DNA of 64,000 nucleotides from the IMG/VR virus record IMGVR_UViG_3300006139_000001. One strand, given 5' to 3'. Each line of letters opens with the position of its first letter. Position 1 is the stretch's first letter. Shown here piece by piece: positions 2,232 through 54,318 of the stretch. The notes beneath the pieces are model-generated. The model made no database searches. It saw only the letters and a program-made list of their open reading frames with translations, and was not told the DNA's origin. Source of the DNA: a virus. The position numbers and the translations under genes are program-made.

Positions 2232-3437
2232 ATGAGTGTTGATGACGTGAAGAAATTTAAAATAACACTTGAAGAAGCTATTACATATCAAAACTATTTT
2301 CATGCATTAAAAGAATGCAATAAAAATGTTAATTATAAATATAGTGTTCAAGAATTTGATTGTAATTGTGTTGTTCAAATTACCAACACTATAAATACAA
2401 TCTGTGATGGGCTAATCCCTAATGTAAAAAGTATAAACCCTATTACTATCTTTGAAAGAGGTAAGCAAAGAATTATAACTCCAATAGATATTAGTGATAG
2501 GATAACTCAAAAAGTATTATGCGATAATGTTTTAGTACCTTCTATTTGCCCTCATTTAATATTTGATAATGGTGCAAGTATGAAAAATAAAGGAACAGAT
2601 TTTGCTAGAAGGAGAGTTAATTCATTTATAGAAGATGCGAAGCGAGAGTATGGTGGCGAAAACTTATATGCTCTCGTTTTTGATTTTAAGAGTTATTTTG
2701 ACAGCATTCCTCACGAACAATGTTATAGAGTGTTAAAGAAATATCTATATGACGAAAGACTTGTTGACCTGACAATCGGCATTATTGAATCTTATAAATT
2801 GCGCAATATAGCAACAATAGAAGATGATGAACAGCGTAAAAAAGCTCTTGAAACATTGCATAATCATAAGGATGTCGGTATATGTCTTGGAAGCCAAATA
2901 TCTCAAATTATGGCGGTAGCCGTTCCAAATGAATTTGACCATTATATTAAAGATGTATTGAGATTAAAATATTATGAGCGTTATATGGATGATGGGATTA
3001 TTATTTTGAATGACAAAAATAAATTATTGCAACTTAAAATAGAACTTGGAGATTTGGCAAAAAAGTATGGTTTAAAATTTAATGATAAGAAAACCTATGT
3101 TACAAAGCTAACGAAAGGTTTTACATTTTTAAAAATAAAATACCATATTAATTCTGAAGGTAAAACAATTAAAAGGCTTGTGCGTTCTGGTATAGTGAGG
3201 GAACGTAGAAAACTAAAGAAGTTCAGGGTGAAAGTTGAGGATAGTGGTATGTCATTAGATGATGTGTATAATAACATACAGTCTTGGAATGCGCATTCTA
3301 AGATTGCAAAATGCTATACAACATCTAAAAATATGTTCGGATTATATAATGAGTATTTTGATGGGTATAAAATGACCCAAAAGTATTTTAAAGATAATCC
3401 AAATACAATACGTAAAAGAAAGGTGGTTAGAGTATGA
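2232..3437 (+). CDS. Reverse transcriptase (DGR-type)
   Basis: RT motifs YALVFDFKSYFDSIPH (motif 2), LGSQISQ (DGR-type motif 4), RYMDDGIIIL (YxDD catalytic motif). Positioned directly after the TR. Confidence 0.85.
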   Translation: MSVDDVKKFKITLEEAITYQNYFHALKECNKNVNYKYSVQEFDCNCVVQITNTINTICDGLIPNVKSINPITIFERGKQRIITPIDISDRITQKVLCDNVLVPSICPHLIFDNGASMKNKGTDFARRRVNSFIEDAKREYGGENLYALVFDFKSYFDSIPHEQCYRVLKKYLYDERLVDLTIGIIESYKLRNIATIEDDEQRKKALETLHNHKDVGICLGSQISQIMAVAVPNEFDHYIKDVLRLKYYERYMDDGIIILNDKNKLLQLKIELGDLAKKYGLKFNDKKTYVTKLTKGFTFLKIKYHINSEGKTIKRLVRSGIVRERRKLKKFRVKVEDSGMSLDDVYNNIQSWNAHSKIAKCYTTSKNMFGLYNEYFDGYKMTQKYFKDNPNTIRKRKVVRV

Positions 3438-4891: not shown

Positions 4892-6502
4892 TCAGTCAAT
4901 CTTCCCGATAAAGCGGTAGAATATCTCAACCTCTTGCTCCTTGCCACCTTCCGTTTCTACAGATTCATGTACTATAATCTTTTCGATTAAAGCATTGAGC
5001 AATGGTGCTGTAAGTTCTTGTGGGTCAGTGTACTGCTTTATAAGAGCAATCCACTTTTCCTTGTTACTTGCGTTCTCTTTTTCTTCTTGAAGTTTGGCTG
5101 ACAATGTTTCAACGAGTTCATGAAGTTCATCTTGCTCTTGCTGGTATTTAGCTGTTAGCATATTGAAGTTTCTCTCATTGATTTTGTCTTGTAACCTATC
5201 TTCATAAAGTTTCGCAAAGAGCGTATCTAACTCTCTTAGTCTTTTCTCAGATTTCTTTATATCTGAAATTGCTCTTTGCCGGGAGGAAGCAAACTCTTTA
5301 TCGCCACTTTTTATAAGGTATGCGAGTAGCTTATCTTCATCTTTCTGAGCTATAGCCGTCCAATAACGAATTCTTGATAAAACATACTCATACAATGTGT
5401 CGTAACGAATATAGTGCATTGAACAGAAAACTTTGCCCATTTGACCATATTTGCTACACGAGAAGTAACTATATGGGTTTTTGTTTTGAGTATTCGTACC
5501 AAACCTCATTGACCATCCGCAATCAGCACACTTAACCAATCCAGCGAATATTTGTTGTTGAGTGTTTTTCATGTTCCTACGTCTTGACTCTATCATACCT
5601 TGGATTTGTTTAAATTCTTCTTTGCCAATAATAGGTTCATGTGTATTCTCGATTCTTAACCATTCGCTTTTAGGTTTTCTCACACGTTTCTTATTCTTAA
5701 ACGAAATAGTACTTTGCTTATTGTGAATTGTATTGCCGATATAGGTTTCATCCTTCAGAATGTGTTTAACCTGAGCAATCGTCCACATATATCGTTTGTT
5801 TTCTGGCTGTCCATCAAAAATGTGTGCAAATGTGCCATCTTTCTGATAGTTAATCCAAGCAGGTGTTGGTACTTGCTCTTTAATAAGAGCCTTAGTGATT
5901 TTTGCCGCACCAATTCCACTTAATGCGTATGTGAAGATTTTCTCAATAATCCATTTGGTTTCTTCATCGACGATGAGCTTTCCAACTGAGTCTGGACTTT
6001 TCTTATATCCAATTGGTGCATAAGCACAATAGCGTTCGCCCATTGCAAATTTGGTTTGAAATGCCGCATGAACCTTTTTGCTAATGTCTCTTGCATACCA
6101 TTCGTTGATGATATTTTTAAATGGCGCAAATTCGTTATCGCCATTAAGACTGTCCACACTGTCGTTTATAGCAATGAAGCGCACATTATGGCTTGGAAAA
6201 TACAGCTCTGTATATTGACCAGTGAGGATATAATTTCTACCAAGTCGAGAAAGGTCTTTCACGATTACACAGTTAATCTTACCATCCTCAATATCTTGAA
6301 TCATACGCTGAAAATCTGGTCGGTCAAAATTTGTACCAGACCAACCATCGTCAACATATTCGTCATAGACATTTATATGGTGGTCAATAGCATACTTTCT
6401 TAGCATTTGGCGCTGAGTGATAATACTTGAACTATCACCTTGCAATTCATCGTCTCTACTCAATCGTAGATAGAGTCCAGCATCATAAGTGGGTTCTGTC
6501 AT
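4892..6502 (-). CDS. Large serine recombinase (serine integrase)
   Basis: N-terminal resolvase domain YLRLSRDD...GTNFDRP...VIVKDLSRLGRN, followed by a long recombinase and zinc-ribbon region (CADCGWSM...CSKY) and a coiled-coil C-terminus. 536 aa. Confidence 0.85.
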   Translation of the reverse strand: MTEPTYDAGLYLRLSRDDELQGDSSSIITQRQMLRKYAIDHHINVYDEYVDDGWSGTNFDRPDFQRMIQDIEDGKINCVIVKDLSRLGRNYILTGQYTELYFPSHNVRFIAINDSVDSLNGDNEFAPFKNIINEWYARDISKKVHAAFQTKFAMGERYCAYAPIGYKKSPDSVGKLIVDEETKWIIEKIFTYALSGIGAAKITKALIKEQVPTPAWINYQKDGTFAHIFDGQPENKRYMWTIAQVKHILKDETYIGNTIHNKQSTISFKNKKRVRKPKSEWLRIENTHEPIIGKEEFKQIQGMIESRRRNMKNTQQQIFAGLVKCADCGWSMRFGTNTQNKNPYSYFSCSKYGQMGKVFCSMHYIRYDTLYEYVLSRIRYWTAIAQKDEDKLLAYLIKSGDKEFASSRQRAISDIKKSEKRLRELDTLFAKLYEDRLQDKINERNFNMLTAKYQQEQDELHELVETLSAKLQEEKENASNKEKWIALIKQYTDPQELTAPLLNALIEKIIVHESVETEGGKEQEVEIFYRFIGKID

Positions 6503-47188: not shown

Positions 47189-47238
47189 ATTATATCACAC
47201 TTTATAGCGAATGTCAATACTTTTTCGGATTTAATTTG
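47189..47238 (-). promoter_or_regulatory. Consensus promoter TTGACA-17-TATAAT plus conserved upstream element
   Basis: rc(47212-47217)=TTGACA, rc(47189-47194)=TATAAT, then AAAGGAG and ATG 47165. Motif at 47220-47235. Confidence 0.55.
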
Positions 47239-47417
47239 TTGTCTTTTTTATAAACAAGATACAAGTAAGAATAACCACCTATATTTCCTACTGGTGCAGC
47301 ATTCAAACACATTGCAATCTCGTTAGAATCATATACTCTATTACCCTGTCTATACTGTTTACCAAAGTTTATATCACCGAATCCCCAGACCAGTTTGGGT
47401 TTGCTTTCATTACTCAT
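47214..47417 (-). pseudogene. Fragment resembling the C-terminal TRD/motif-IX region of a C5-cytosine methyltransferase
   Basis: QGNRVYDSNEIAMCLNAAPVGNIGGYSYLYLV closely parallels the M.HhaI region QGERIYSTRGIAITLSAYGGG...GGYLV. 67-aa ORF that stops before motif X. Confidence 0.4.
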
Positions 47418-47564
47418 TATACGCCTCTATCAGTTTATATGAATTTCTTAAAGCACAGCTACCCACCGTAGTAGTTATTGTACCTATCGTGTTTTGGTCA
47501 GCTCTTACATTACTATTATAATCATCGTAGATAATTATACTTTTATCTCCCCCCGCAAGATTGC

Positions 47565-49236
47565 TTATGTTACGCTCACTTGCGGAATGGTAAAATTTTC
47601 ACTGTTAATATCATCAAATAATCTATCTAAACCGACTTCAAAAGCGCCGATACCAGAGAAGTAACTACCAACTTTCAAATCATCAAACAAATAAGGCATC
47701 GCTTCGTATAGCTCTTTGAATATGTAATACAGAACATTTGTGACGATAGAGTTACCAGCTTGTTTATATAGCTGGCTATTGCTTACTCCTGCTTTCTCAG
47801 CTCTGTCAAATGCTTCATCTGAAAAACCCATAAGCCTCCAGCATTCTTTTGGCGTTAGTTTTCTAATTCTATAACCAACATCATTATTTTCAATCACTCG
47901 TTTGTCACCCCCGAATCAATGGTTCTAATCGTACCGATTGCATCATCTTTGAATGTTCGTAGACCTTCATCCATACGTCTTTCACATACCATTTTCATAT
48001 CATTTACCTTAACCAACACTTTAGGTTCTCGCTCTCCCCCCTGACAAGTGTTTATTGTTGGAGCAATACCGCCAATAGAATACACTCTGCCACATTGAGG
48101 ATTGCTAAATGTTGGTGTTCCTTTTCTTAAATTTCCTAATTGGATTATCTTGTTCATTATCATTCTCCAAAATCATTATTGAAGTTTTGATACCCAACGC
48201 TGCACATAAGGTAGGTGCAACACCCCCCCGCACCATATACAATGTTGGACTGATGCTTACCAGTTCCTTTTTCTAAAAAACCTACTTCTTCGATATTTCT
48301 CATAATTACTTCTTTGATAAGGCTACAACTCCATTCATACTTTGGTTTCCAAATCCTTTATAGTCTCTGGCAAGAAGTGTATTTGCAACTTCGGTTTCTC
48401 TATCGAAAACGCTACATTGTTTTGAGAAAAGTCCAGGCATTAAATCTGAACCATATCCCATTGATGTCGGTCTACACTTCCTCTCTCCCCCCCGCCCTTA
48501 TGGTGTTGGATATTTCTTTATCAAGTTTGCCACTTGATACAAGGTCATCAATAAGTGCTTTAGCTTGTGGAGTGTTGATATAATATTTCTCGTCAACTTC
48601 ATCTTCAAGAATATCTTTCAGCCTTAGACCATTATCAAACGGTTCTGGGAATTTGAACTTACCGTTATCAAACTCCTTCAGAATAATAATCAGATATACA
48701 CGTTCACGGTTTTGTGGAATACCGTAGTCTTTTGCATTTAACACCTGGAAATATGTATTATAGCCGTACTCGTGCAGCTCACCTAAAAACATCTGGAATG
48801 TCTCTTTGAACTGTTTACCGACGATGTTTTTGACATTTTCATAGATACCCCATTTAGGTTTATTGGCTCTAATAATTCTGAGCCATTCAACAAGTAACGA
48901 ACTTCTTGTTTTGTCAAGGCTCTCGCTGCCGCAATTCGGGCATTGATGTCTCTTTGAATAATGCACGGTGAGTGGATTGTATTCGTGACCACAATTAGAA
49001 CACTGCCACTTGCTACCTGCTTGCTTACCGGCTACTGAGAAATCTTGACACGGACTACCGCCACAAATCATATTAAATGGTTTTAGACTTGTCTCATCTA
49101 CTTTTGTTATATCTCCAAGATTTAAGGAATCATCAACACCATGCACAGCGCAGTAACTTTTCACAGCGTACTTATCAAACTCACAAAAATTCGCAAGTTC
49201 ATAACCTTTTCTTGAAGTGCTGTTTTTATTATCCAT
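47565..49236 (-). pseudogene. C5-cytosine DNA methyltransferase coding region broken into at least 3 ORFs (48472-49236, 47894-48163, 47565-47897) with G7 tracts at the breaks, and motif I located after motif X
   Basis: 48472-49236: PCQ (GGSPCQDFSVAGK), ENV, QNRERVYLI, starting right after the motif-I position (GYELANFCEFDKYA). 47894-48163: GRVYSIGGIAPTINTCQGG. 47565-47897: motif X RKLTPKECWRLMGFSD...AGNSIVTNV, then in frame motif I LKVGSYFSGIGAFEVGL. Minus-strand G7 tracts at 48487-48493 and 48223-48229. A -1 shift at each restores MTase-like sequence (…ANTLLARDYKG…, …IVYGAGGVAPTLCAALG…). Confidence 0.6.
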
Positions 49237-49924: not shown

Positions 49925-50989
49925 TTACACAATTTCCTTGCATTTTTTCTCCCACGGAAATACACCATTACCAAAGTGACCAAACATTGCAGTAGGATAG
50001 TACTTAATATCTTTCAAATTAAGGTCACGAATAATATTAGATGGAGCGCATTCAGGATAAACCCAGTTAAGGTCAGTAATATTACCTTTGTCGGTTCTTA
50101 CATAAATACCAAGTGGGACATCTAAGCCAATGGCATAAGATAGCTGGATTTCGCACCAGCTAATATCTGGTTTAGATTCAAGACATTCAATAGCAAGCTG
50201 TCTTGCTTTGTATGCGGCACTACGGTCAACCTTTGTCGGGTCTTTACCGCTAAAGGCGCCTCCACCAACATTTGCAAACGATTGGTAATTATCAACCACA
50301 ATCTTTCTGCCGGTCAGACCTGCATCACCATCAAAACCTCCAATAAGGAACTTACCAGTGGGATTGATATGAAAAGATTCAATATTATCAATGTCATATT
50401 CGTGACAAACCTCAGTTACAAAGTCAATTAGAATCTTATCGGTTTCTTCTCGTTCAACCTCTGTATTCTGATAAGAGATAGTGAAGTCTTTAATACCAAT
50501 CAGTTTTTTGTCATTATCGTAAATACCAGTAATTTGAGCTTTACCATCTGGCAAAAATCTTTTATCATTGTGACATAGTGCATCATAAAACTTTGATAAT
50601 GTCTGAAGGATAACCATTGCTTTGGGTAAATACTGTGGCGTTTCTCTGCAAGCATAGCCGAACATCATTCCCTGGTCGCCAGCTCCACCAGTATCTACAC
50701 CCTGCGCAATATCTGGCGACTGCATTCCAATATTGTTGATAATCTCATAATTAGTCTTATAACCAATATCACGGAGAACAGATTTGACTACCGTTTCTAT
50801 GTTCACGTTTGCCGCCGAAGTGACTTCACCTGTGATAAAGATTTTACCCTTGCCACCAACTACTTCAATTCCGCAACGACTATTCTTATCCTGTTCAAGA
50901 AACGCATCAAGCAAAGCATCGCTAATCTGGTCGCAAACTTTGTCTGGATGTCCTCTAAACACAATCTCATTACTGTAAAAATAACTCAT
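49925..50989 (-). CDS. metK: S-adenosylmethionine synthetase
   Basis: MetK hallmarks GHPDKVCDQISDA, GAGDQG, GGGAFSGKDPTKVDRSAAY. 354 aa (somewhat shorter than bacterial MetK). Confidence 0.8.
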   Translation of the reverse strand: MSYFYSNEIVFRGHPDKVCDQISDALLDAFLEQDKNSRCGIEVVGGKGKIFITGEVTSAANVNIETVVKSVLRDIGYKTNYEIINNIGMQSPDIAQGVDTGGAGDQGMMFGYACRETPQYLPKAMVILQTLSKFYDALCHNDKRFLPDGKAQITGIYDNDKKLIGIKDFTISYQNTEVEREETDKILIDFVTEVCHEYDIDNIESFHINPTGKFLIGGFDGDAGLTGRKIVVDNYQSFANVGGGAFSGKDPTKVDRSAAYKARQLAIECLESKPDISWCEIQLSYAIGLDVPLGIYVRTDKGNITDLNWVYPECAPSNIIRDLNLKDIKYYPTAMFGHFGNGVFPWEKKCKEIV

Positions 50990-53180: not shown

Positions 53181-54089
53181 TTAATTTATATATGTAAAGA
53201 TATATGCTATTACATCAACTGTCCAGCCATCTCCAATCAAGTCTGCTGCATCTTTTTCCGAAAGATTCTTTATATACTTTTCAGGAATAGTTTGTAATTT
53301 TGCTCGTTCCTCTTTCCAAAGGTATCTTGCACAATCAAATACATTTCCACTGTAATTATCAAATATCTCTGCTTTTGGTTTTGCGTTCCCAACAACTCTT
53401 TCAAACTCTTTCTTGCATTCTTCAAATTTCTCTTTGTTTGGGAATATCATCGTTGAAAAAGCCTTGTAAAACCATCTGTAAAACCTTTTGCTTGAAGTCC
53501 AATTACAACCATTGTAATAACCGTGAGAATCATTCTTCATTAAACAGCGAGATTTTTTATATGGGTAATAACCTTCAATTAAAATGTCGTTCACACTTAC
53601 ATCTTTTGTTGGAAAATTATCCACTGAAAAAGGTATGTTCGTCCAATAAAGTCTATCTCTCATTTGTGCGGTTATCTGTTTAGAATTTATACGAACCGGT
53701 TTTACTCCAAGCGATTCGGTTATAACTTGTTCGTCATCTTTCTTCATAATGACATTTTCCATTAGGAAATATCTTGGATTAACCTCATGTAAAACTCTAT
53801 TACATTCTAAAAACAAACCAGACCGAATCCTATCTTCAAGACCAATTCTTCTTTCTATTTTCATTGCTCTGCTAAAACTTTGGCAAGGAGAACCGAACAT
53901 TACCAAATCAAATGTTTCTTCAAACTTCCCAAAATCAGTGAATAAAATGCCATCTTTGTATTGAACATTATTTACATCTCCAATATGTATCGTGTCTGGA
54001 AAATTTTCTTTGGTCGTCCTAATTGCTATTTCTTTTATTTCAGAAGCATAATACTTCTTTACTTTGATGCCGACCTTTTCAAGCGCCAT
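53181..54089 (-). CDS. C5-cytosine methyltransferase-like protein lacking a translated motif I
   Basis: PCQ (MFGSPCQSFSRA), ENV (FLMENVIM), QxRxR (QMRDRLY), and a motif-X-like C-terminus. The open frame upstream of ATG 54089 encodes a degenerate motif I (ITVLSLCDGISCGR) but has no start codon back to the stop at 54171-54173. Confidence 0.55.
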   Translation of the reverse strand: MALEKVGIKVKKYYASEIKEIAIRTTKENFPDTIHIGDVNNVQYKDGILFTDFGKFEETFDLVMFGSPCQSFSRAMKIERRIGLEDRIRSGLFLECNRVLHEVNPRYFLMENVIMKKDDEQVITESLGVKPVRINSKQITAQMRDRLYWTNIPFSVDNFPTKDVSVNDILIEGYYPYKKSRCLMKNDSHGYYNGCNWTSSKRFYRWFYKAFSTMIFPNKEKFEECKKEFERVVGNAKPKAEIFDNYSGNVFDCARYLWKEERAKLQTIPEKYIKNLSEKDAADLIGDGWTVDVIAYIFTYIN

Positions 54090-54318
54090 TCTTCCACAAC
54101 TAATACCATCACATAGACTTAAAACTGTAATTCCATCTTGTGATGATAAAATATCTTTTTTATTACACCGCTAACCTTCAAAGTTTGAGAGGTTAAAAGC
54201 GTAAATAAAACCGATAGAACATATTGCTCAATGCTAAACTCCCAAATTAGGAGGATTTATGGAAGAAACAAGTGTTAAAAAAGATATTTACTCTTTGCCT
54301 CTCCCAATTACATTTCAT

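Follow-up and report, generated by a model that had tools for sequence, protein, structure and literature searches.

A circularly permuted phage cytosine methyltransferase locus with poly-G tracts and a predicted frameshift, likely a switchable anti-restriction device

Why would a phage carry a C5-cytosine DNA methyltransferase gene whose reading frame changes five times between its ATG and the stop codon behind its last motif? The question arises from a 2-kb locus in IMG/VR virus record IMGVR_UViG_3300006139_000001, of which we analysed a stretch of 64,000 nucleotides (hereafter the window). A sequence-only reading of this DNA had offered three explanations: a phase-variable contingency locus, a decaying pseudogene or homopolymer sequencing errors. 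Comparison with related loci points to a likely switchable anti-restriction device rather than a dead gene or a sequencing error. We interpret the locus as a phage C5-methyltransferase, predicted to be active, from a conserved circularly permuted family, whose target-recognition domains (TRDs) would be set by slippage at poly-G tracts and extended by −1 ribosomal frameshifting, probably as a form of bet-hedging. We give this full explanation, enzyme identity and switching taken together, a probability of roughly two in three. Positions refer to the + strand of the window; the gene lies on the minus strand, so the C runs listed are G runs on the gene strand. Features are collected in Table 1.

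Motif order and the permuted family

Every motif expected of a C5-methyltransferase (I FxGxG, IV PCQ, VI ENV, VIII QxRxR, IX and X) is present in the locus. The canonical I-to-X order in one polypeptide is not: motif I follows motif X, and the coding sequence is divided among at least seven open reading frame (ORF) pieces. These occupy three reading frames, one fewer than the four counted previously. ORF1, the N-terminal part of the enzyme, aligns with M.HhaI residues 33-92 and 94-207 (PDB alignment); since its N-terminus falls at M.HhaI residue 33, what it lacks is precisely the strand of motif I together with helix A. ORF1 also carries a zinc ribbon, absent from M.HhaI, whose four cysteines are invariant in 77 homologs. 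Motifs IX, X and I of the window share one reading frame.

The suspicion that the protein is circularly permuted, with new termini between motifs I and II, proved right, and the permutation is evidenced by the sequences of a large family with the order II-VIII, TRD array, IX, X, I. All 87 related loci from metagenomes and IMG/VR examined for motif order have one motif IV and one motif I, the latter 102 nucleotides after motif X and never upstream. The 110-residue ORF spanning IX, X and I has more than 120 homologs (67-100% identity, mostly 75-95%), all of them 88-189 amino acids long and all keeping the X-to-I junction; at the level of 50%-identity clusters, 83 representatives match this ORF at E<=1e-30. 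Searching with a frame-corrected reconstruction returned many intact proteins of 447-758 amino acids at about 50% identity, which begin at motif II (W/YELVNFCEFDKYA) and end ...QAGNSIV...AMPYLFDDLK(L/V)SSFFSGIGAFE.... Intact permuted examples (P0183, P0188, P0125, P0128 and P0143) occur in Lachnospiraceae genomes and gut phages, and P0183, from Anaerobutyricum hallii, is annotated merely as a DNA (cytosine-5-)-methyltransferase. Among bacterial genomes, the permuted form was found in isolates of Blautia, Dorea, Faecalimonas, Coprococcus, Enterocloster and others, and the canonical order in relatives at 52% identity or less. In a phage collection, a near-identity DNA search gave no match to the locus and tblastn found relatives at no more than 44% identity. 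The AlphaFold model of P0121, the closest intact relative (75% identity to ORF1), has a confident core, with a C-terminal strand (403-407) and helix (412-427) at predicted local distance difference test scores of 81-95, and its best structural matches are M.HhaI, at a Foldseek probability of 1.0, and M.HaeIII.

Other natural enzymes, namely M.BssHII, M.Alw26I, M2.Eco31I, M.Esp3I and M2.BsaI, likewise place motif X before motif I. In M.BssHII-type enzymes, however, the break and the N-terminus lie in the variable region and motifs IX-X precede I-VIII, whereas here only motif I and helix A have moved. When 20,677 REBASE entries were screened in 2018 for enzymes with motif X ahead of motif I, 27 natural examples emerged, every one permuted in the variable region (PMC5944983), and we found no later description of a I/II-type permutation in the literature searched. 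The family is large and apparently undescribed. If our assignment is right, it would form a new natural class of permuted C5-methyltransferases with the break between motifs I and II, a break approached previously through protein engineering alone: an engineered permuted M.MpeI with its new N-terminus between motifs II and III is highly active and can be split into complementing fragments (PMC5944983). Hundreds of natural sequences would now be usable for structure-function work.

Poly-G tracts and the two enzyme halves

The breaks in the locus go together with an unusual set of homopolymers. A count over the full window, whose G+C content is 36%, bore out the earlier observation that G7 runs are confined to this locus together with both G6 runs: C7 occurs at 48223-48229 and 48487-48493 only, C6 at 47549-47554 and 48036-48041 only, and there are no other G or C runs of at least six in the 64 kb. 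The locus also contains a C5 at 47908-47912. Such local enrichment of a mutable repeat inside coding sequence is characteristic of homopolymer contingency loci. Three-frame translation likewise upheld the claim that deleting one G at each G7 regains methyltransferase-like sequence: at the first G7, the deletion yields ...RAGGERKCRPTS...ANTLLARDYKG, a reading that occurs naturally in relatives (P0122, P0124, P0167, P0174, L008 and L011), and at the second it yields KHQSNIVYGAGGVAPTLCAALG. Five frame changes separate the ATG from the stop behind motif I; the claim that the breaks fall at homopolymers held for three of them (G7, G7 and G5) and failed for the other two. Both G6 runs leave the frame in which they are read unbroken, 48036-48041 lying in frame within the array and 47549-47554 after motif I, in frame with a −1 ORF described below. 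Breaks were placed by an ORF-overlap path; a map built from the best tblastn high-scoring segment pairs was too noisy and was dropped.

The tracts are set within an array of five or six TRD-like modules, all on one strand, against 2-6 modules in intact relatives. At least two tandem TRDs between motifs VIII and IX are the mark of SPR/phi3T-type enzymes, and the locus has them; a module resembling its MRNIEEV...VAPTLCAALG cassette is present inside intact P0128. Switching by DNA inversion, as in a shufflon, was also weighed, against modules that all share one strand. Introns and inteins were ruled out as an origin of the breaks, which are single-nucleotide frame changes, and intein Pfam families are restricted to a few distant homologs. 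Intein/Hint Pfam domains, or an insert of about 200 amino acids inside the TRD array, are present in some members of the family (P0158, P0179, P0181; P0135, P0227).

Broken and intact copies separate by clade. We found 55 loci with one uninterrupted ORF at 67-78% identity to ORF1, and the 33 closest loci, including the window, each need 2-10 frame changes, all between motifs VIII and IX. Segments II-VIII and IX-X-I are unbroken in every locus. Broken copies in genome collections number five (L106, L107, L108, L144 and L152) and include the cultured isolate Ruminococcus sp. YE282 (82% identity) and one Ruminococcus metagenome-assembled genome; since both carry broken copies, Ruminococcus is suggested as the host, and the members of this subclade are probably Ruminococcus phages.

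This distribution also decides the case of homopolymer sequencing or assembly errors in an intact gene. Three breaks do lie at G5-G7 runs, as errors of that kind would have it. Nevertheless, dozens of independent assemblies, drawn from several sources, share the fragmented layout with the cultured Ruminococcus isolate, two breaks are away from homopolymers, and one alternative-frame ending is conserved (see below). The window moreover holds 316 A/T runs of at least five, yet the neighbouring genes tested (MetK, DNA ligase and PurA-like) are full-length Pfam matches. Sequencing error is so improbable on this evidence that we treat it as excluded.

G runs are concentrated in the subclade genes well beyond what composition predicts. 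In 66 kb of subclade genes there are 107 runs of at least six G, whereas 235 kb of flanking sequence has 11 and 87 kb of intact-clade genes has 0, an enrichment over the flanks of about 35-fold at equal G content (0.217 in the subclade, 0.215 in the comparison sequence). Intact-clade genes write Gly-Gly as GGTGGT, GGTGGC or GGAGGT. The tracts also vary in length. Twelve contigs of one related phage, from different samples and about 99% identical, have indels at six places of the locus, namely five G tracts with 2-3 alleles each and one A7 run. Five families of contigs sharing at least 95% identity contain 16 internal indels, of which 12 are in G runs of at least five, 4 in other homopolymers and none elsewhere. 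Length polymorphism affects about 49% of G/C tract sites and 12% of A/T tract sites. The sole difference between L030 and L031 is G6 versus G11. Length variation with frame change among near-identical genomes, a further hallmark of contingency loci, is exemplified by the counterpart of the 47908-47912 tract, which among the 12 contigs is G6 in six, G5 in five and GGGAGG in one: the G6 allele joins the last TRD to motif IX (144-residue ORF P0040), and the G5 allele leaves a 110-residue ORF (P0041). These differences suggest slippage at the tracts within phage populations.

Tracts of the same kind are found in a second methyltransferase gene. In related phages, motif I (F.GGG) of Dam-like PF02086 adenine methyltransferase genes contains G6-G8 tracts (L004 2484, L005 3303, L012 1006, L017 1071, L023 1044 and L024 2620), which account for several of the few flanking G tracts. 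Called ORFs of the tract-bearing genes are 235, 97 or 38 amino acids long, and this second methyltransferase appears to carry mutable tracts.

Might the G runs instead act without any change in the DNA, as fixed sites of ribosomal frameshifting or transcriptional slippage that yield several isoforms per genotype, with length differences incidental? Such recoding is compatible with slippage and not mutually exclusive with it. The gene already has a −1 frameshift signal (see below), the tracts are merely 5-8 nucleotides long, and about a quarter of distinct tract contexts are G(n)AGA, containing a G_GGG_GGA-like slippery pattern. On the other side, contigs about 99% identical elsewhere have tracts of different length, all three frames occur naturally at tract 1, and no downstream structure was seen at the internal tracts, though no search was aimed at one. 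We consider fixed-site recoding unlikely.

Tract 1, at the end of ORF1, is a three-way frame switch. In state A, found in 25 of 44 loci, ORF1 ends ...RAGGRGS(I/V)DRHQWDMVQV and a stop; in state B (8 of 44), it continues into the ARDYKG TRD, as in natural read-through proteins of 309-311 amino acids (P0122, P0124, P0167 and P0174); and in state C (11 of 44, including the window, with ...GGREEV and a stop just after the first G7), it ends ...GGEEV or similar. The assembled ending of the window is ...SNTIRAGGREEV followed by a stop. Eighteen distinct relatives cover all three states with tracts of G5-G8, two of them having an interrupted tract locked in state A. Within the 42 nucleotides shared by frames A and B, the distinct variants comprise 11 synonymous and 12 non-synonymous changes when read in frame A, but 4 and 18 when read in frame B. 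A serine of frame A is kept despite a switch of codon family from AGT to TCA, and the frame A stop position is kept in 13 of 14 distinct sequences while its codon varies among TAA, TGA and TAG. This synonymous bias and the kept stop indicate that state A is a selected product and that the tract picks among alternative endings. In a large protein database, the state-A tail was found in four short fragments only and in no canonical enzyme as a TRD. Simple ON/OFF restoration of one long ORF does not fit the conserved other-frame ending, the two breaks away from G runs or the lack of any intact member in the poly-G clade. Where ON/OFF contingency loci restore a single frame, here one tract toggles two conserved endings in overlapping frames.

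If no tract state yields one long chain, what does the subclade make? Two internal start sites suggest a two-subunit enzyme. At MNKIIQLGN, 8 of 9 distinct subclade sequences have an ATG with GGAG 7-8 nucleotides upstream, and the intact clade has no methionine there; P0012 is a natural 189-residue protein running from this start through motif I. In GDKRVIE, which immediately precedes motif IX, 11 of 11 distinct sequences encode the valine by GTG, a codon that makes up 16% of valine codons in the background, and a G tract lies 7-10 nucleotides upstream of this GTG. We infer that the subclade makes its enzyme in two parts, II-VIII and IX-X-I, with the attached TRDs set by the tracts. By analogy, the two halves may assemble into one enzyme, as they do in M.AquI and in engineered split enzymes. 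In M.AquI and in the engineered split or permuted M.MpeI and M.SssI, catalytic and IX-X halves are separate complementing polypeptides; what would differ from the M.AquI type is that here the C-terminal half also bears motif I and the split points would be set by hypermutable tracts.

Both halves and the modules between them appear to be maintained by selection. Among contigs at least 95% identical, 72% of substitutions in the core and 51% in the TRD pieces are synonymous, against a neutral expectation of about 20% (p of 3e-31 and 4e-9 for the synonymous excess), which indicates that the fragments are under purifying selection. This bears on the possibility of a lineage-wide pseudogene, in which the TRD array is dead, the G runs are mutational debris and the pieces persist through recent loss or some other role. 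The universality of the damage, in 33 of 33 subclade loci from phages and metagenomes and in the five broken genome copies, agrees with decay, as do the many frame changes away from G runs and the window's lack of a complete TRD on either half. Decay does not account for the total absence of breaks in II-VIII or IX-X-I in any locus, the synonymous bias that extends to the TRD pieces, the conserved alternative ending of ORF1 with its stop, or the conserved GTG and ATG starts, and it does not predict an enrichment of G runs of about 35-fold at equal G content. We regard a pseudogene as improbable. Of the three explanations offered at the outset, a contingency locus fits best, given the tract enrichment, the length variation in near-identical contigs and the purifying selection.

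A −1 frameshift signal behind motif I

A second form of recoding is predicted after motif I, independently of the internal tracts. The slippery heptamer A_AAT_TTT is present in 61 of 98 distinct family tails, where it falls within (G/E)-N-F in both clades. Its distance to the stop is typically about 8 codons, and 10 in the window. The −1 frame is open from 0-8 codons ahead of the heptamer (0 in the window) and then runs without a start codon for at least 45 codons in 45 of the 61 tails, and for up to about 170, encoding a linker (KFYKSTSGLSSACGD) and then diverse TRD-like modules. Directly 3' of the heptamer lies a predicted stimulatory hairpin. In most relatives it has 11 base pairs and a 6-nucleotide loop and begins 5-6 nucleotides after the heptamer; in the window, the main stem begins 4-6 nucleotides past the heptamer, slightly closer, the loop contains the 0-frame stop, and the 3' arm consists partly of the G6 tract at 47549-47554.

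Folding of 51 distinct relatives gave a mean z of −4.1, and an alignment of 25 sequences has 97% of its cells paired, a share that drops to 36-49% with slid partners. Five stem pairs show compensatory changes, and the observed covariation was reached by no shuffle. More distant L042, L116, L119 and L152 have stems of unrelated sequence at the same position. The ratio of non-synonymous to synonymous polymorphism (pN/pS) of the −1 ORF is 0.14, against 1.0 and 2.1 in the other two phases, and short −1 ORFs that no G tract explains go with weak hairpins (p=3e-4). Rfam matched no family in the locus. The combination of a conserved heptamer in phase, a covarying downstream structure, typically at a spacing of 5-9 nucleotides, and a start-less coding −1 ORF is that of a −1 frameshift signal, which is evidenced by sequence; frameshifting itself is predicted. 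The same combination of X_XXY_YYZ heptamer, short spacer (about 5-6 nucleotides in most relatives here), covarying hairpin and start-less −1 ORF is known from dnaX and from phage tail chaperones G/GT. Those extensions differ from the present one, which consists of one or more methyltransferase target-recognition modules, and we found no report of frameshift-appended TRDs in the literature searched. If true, this would be the first case, as far as we found, of ribosomal frameshifting that appends DNA-recognition modules to a methyltransferase.

In the window, the −1 ORF encodes trailing module 1, which is found after motif I only and is fused in frame in L008, L013, P0042 and P0093; in P0123, too, a trailing TRD is fused directly in frame. 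Regular-expression searches placed the YDDYN module after motif I only; the trailing modules of the window had escaped a tblastn comparison of internal TRD arrays with the sequence behind motif I. In some subclade phages, the hairpin-associated G tract opens or closes the −1 ORF, as in L001 (G7) and the 12-contig L088 family (G5/G6/G7). Trailing module 2, with its own ATG, had been noted before as a repeat of a TRD end, possibly from a degraded second copy. Its TRD-like character stands; it is not a degraded second copy and belongs to the trailing TRD array that begins at the −1 signal, being part of the −1 ORF in many intact-clade loci. In canonical-order L143, this module is the last TRD before motif IX, a position compatible with a trailing array that arose by tandem duplication and fusion.

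Table 1. Features of the methyltransferase locus, in + strand positions of the window
Feature	Position	Strand	Remarks
ORF1, N-terminal enzyme part	48472-49236	-	motifs II/IV/VI/VIII, no motif I; Pfam PF00145 E=2.5e-46
Motif II	49203-49165	-	in ORF1
Motif IV, GGSPCQDFS	49062-49036	-	in ORF1
Zinc ribbon, CxxC...CxxC	48928-49002	-	in ORF1, between IV and VI
Motif VI (ENV)	48843-48826	-	in ORF1
Motif VIII (QNRER)	48714-48694	-	in ORF1
Poly-G tract 1, G7 then AGAGAGG	48487-48493	-	three-way frame switch at ORF1 end; states A/B/C in relatives
TRD cassette ANTLLARDYKG	48324-48485	-	fused to ORF1 only in state B (G6 here)
TRD cassette MRNIEEV...KHQSNIVYGAGG/VAPTLCAALG	48165-48303	-	split (at the slash) by second G7, 48223-48229
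C-terminal cistron start, then two TRD modules	47909-48157	-	ATG at 48157 (MNKIIQLGN...); GGAG 7 nucleotides upstream
Poly-G tract, G5	47908-47912	-	off; between last internal TRD (...TIRTIDSG) and GDKRVIE/motif IX; G6 would fuse both
Minimal C-terminal ORF	47565-47897	-	GTG start; motifs IX, X, I; ends ...NSENFTIPQVSVT and stop; Pfam PF00145 profile positions 272-323
Motif IX	47870-47823	-	in C-terminal ORF
Motif X	47762-47742	-	in C-terminal ORF
Motif I, FSGIGAFE	47660-47637	-	in C-terminal ORF
Slippery heptamer A_AAT_TTT	47592-47598	-	0-frame phase within Glu-Asn-Phe; in 61/98 distinct family tails
Predicted stimulatory hairpin	47549-47590	-	directly 3' of heptamer; free energy (dG) -16.8 kcal/mol, z -3.8
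−1 ORF without start, trailing TRD module 1	47410-47598	-	KFYHSASERNISNLAGGDKSIIIYDDYNSNVRADQNTIGTITTT...AYNE and stop (also given as KFYHSASERNISNLAGGDKSIIIYDDYNS...AYNE and stop); G6 in frame
Trailing TRD module 2	47214-47417	-	MSNESKP...GKQYRQGNRVYDS...GGYSYLY; own ATG overlapping −1 ORF end; TRD-like

Proposed mechanism, precedents and genomic setting

Taken together, these features suggest how the locus could work. Poly-G tracts on the sense strand of the TRD array would change length by slippage, and each change would re-frame the array and so alter the TRDs attached to the two conserved enzyme halves. ORF1, with motifs II-VIII, would receive one of three endings set by tract 1, and a second cistron with internal starts would supply motifs IX, X and I. 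Independently, a −1 ribosomal frameshift after motif I would add trailing TRDs to a fraction of the protein, and in the subclade a further G tract built into the hairpin would gate this extension. Phage subpopulations with different cytosine-methylation patterns could thus arise as a form of bet-hedging, the varied patterns protecting against diverse host restriction and limiting exposure to methylation-dependent systems. A more far-reaching idea, to which we give slightly less than even odds, is that the phage sets its own target repertoire by recoding at two levels, through poly-G at the DNA level and −1 frameshifting at translation, for a combinatorial, heritable and reversible methylome.

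Several observations weigh against this mechanism. Not one member of the poly-G clade has an uninterrupted ORF, and about half of the frame changes in the subclade, including those at about 48306-48324 and 48157-48165 in the window, are away from G runs, so slippage alone cannot rebuild a single chain. As assembled, the window has a complete internal TRD on neither enzyme half. Tracts of G5-G8 are short next to those of classical contingency loci, and length differences between assemblies are no proof of switching inside one population. When canonical relatives were searched by regular expression for an internal TRD matching RGSIDRHQWD, the state-A tail, there was no match. It is structurally puzzling how a TRD tethered after motif I would dock into the DNA cleft, and the AlphaFold model has low confidence in the TRD region. 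A further set of pN/pS values, separate from those given for the three phases of the trailing region, is biased, as its alignments were selected by protein.

Several components have precedents: multispecific phage C5-methyltransferases, variable-region permutations, split enzymes, homopolymer contingency loci and −1 frameshifting are all known. The Bacillus phage enzymes M.SPRI, M.Phi3TI and M.Rho11sI also carry tandem TRDs between motifs VIII and IX, and the phi3T enzyme matches the locus at 35% identity; the modular TRD organisation of such multispecific enzymes is attributed to Trautner et al. 1996 in a passage of PMC12707154. Unlike the locus, M.SPRI-type enzymes are single chains in canonical order, with no poly-G tracts, frameshift-appended TRDs or zinc ribbon. 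Coding homopolymers that vary in length and shift the frame are shared with the phase-variable Type III mod genes of 'phasevarions', the poly-G receptor-binding genes of Campylobacter Fletchervirus and loci of T2/T4. Homopolymer contingency loci, phage examples among them, are treated in PMC12707154 and PMC12633550; a poly-G tract in a Bordetella phage methylase gene is known, and a 2025 preprint deals with the contingency loci of T2/T4. What sets the present case apart is that several tracts, each at a Gly-Gly position of a TRD module, lie in a phage C5-methyltransferase, and we found no report of a poly-G-punctuated TRD array in the literature searched. If the explanation is correct, hypermutable tracts of phages target DNA methyltransferases, a point to which the tract-bearing Dam-like genes of related phages also belong, and it predicts that large phages of gut and rumen balance the risk of classical restriction against that of methylation-dependent restriction. 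Candidate new specificities would be available as a library in the TRD cassettes.

The surroundings of the locus contain further genes of DNA modification. An S-adenosylmethionine synthetase gene lies just upstream (49925-50989, minus strand), likewise in L001 and L088-L102, and may supply the methyl donor. Farther on is a second C5-methyltransferase-like gene in canonical order (53181-54200, minus strand; PF00145 E=5e-25), whose motif-I-like VLSLCDGISCG is upstream of the first ATG/GTG/TTG of the ORF, leaving its start or integrity doubtful. In the phage replication module, an adenylosuccinate synthetase homolog (PF00709; 43483-44694, minus strand) could be a PurZ-type enzyme for 2-aminoadenine DNA. 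The window also contains a diversity-generating retroelement with a 142-nucleotide template repeat (1782-1923), a variable repeat (642-783) at the 3' end of the ORF 11-790 and a reverse transcriptase ORF (2232-3437); the two repeats differ at 11 positions, every one of them an adenine in the template. Finally, a large serine recombinase/integrase (4892-6502, minus strand) suggests that this phage, roughly 150 kb in size, is temperate.

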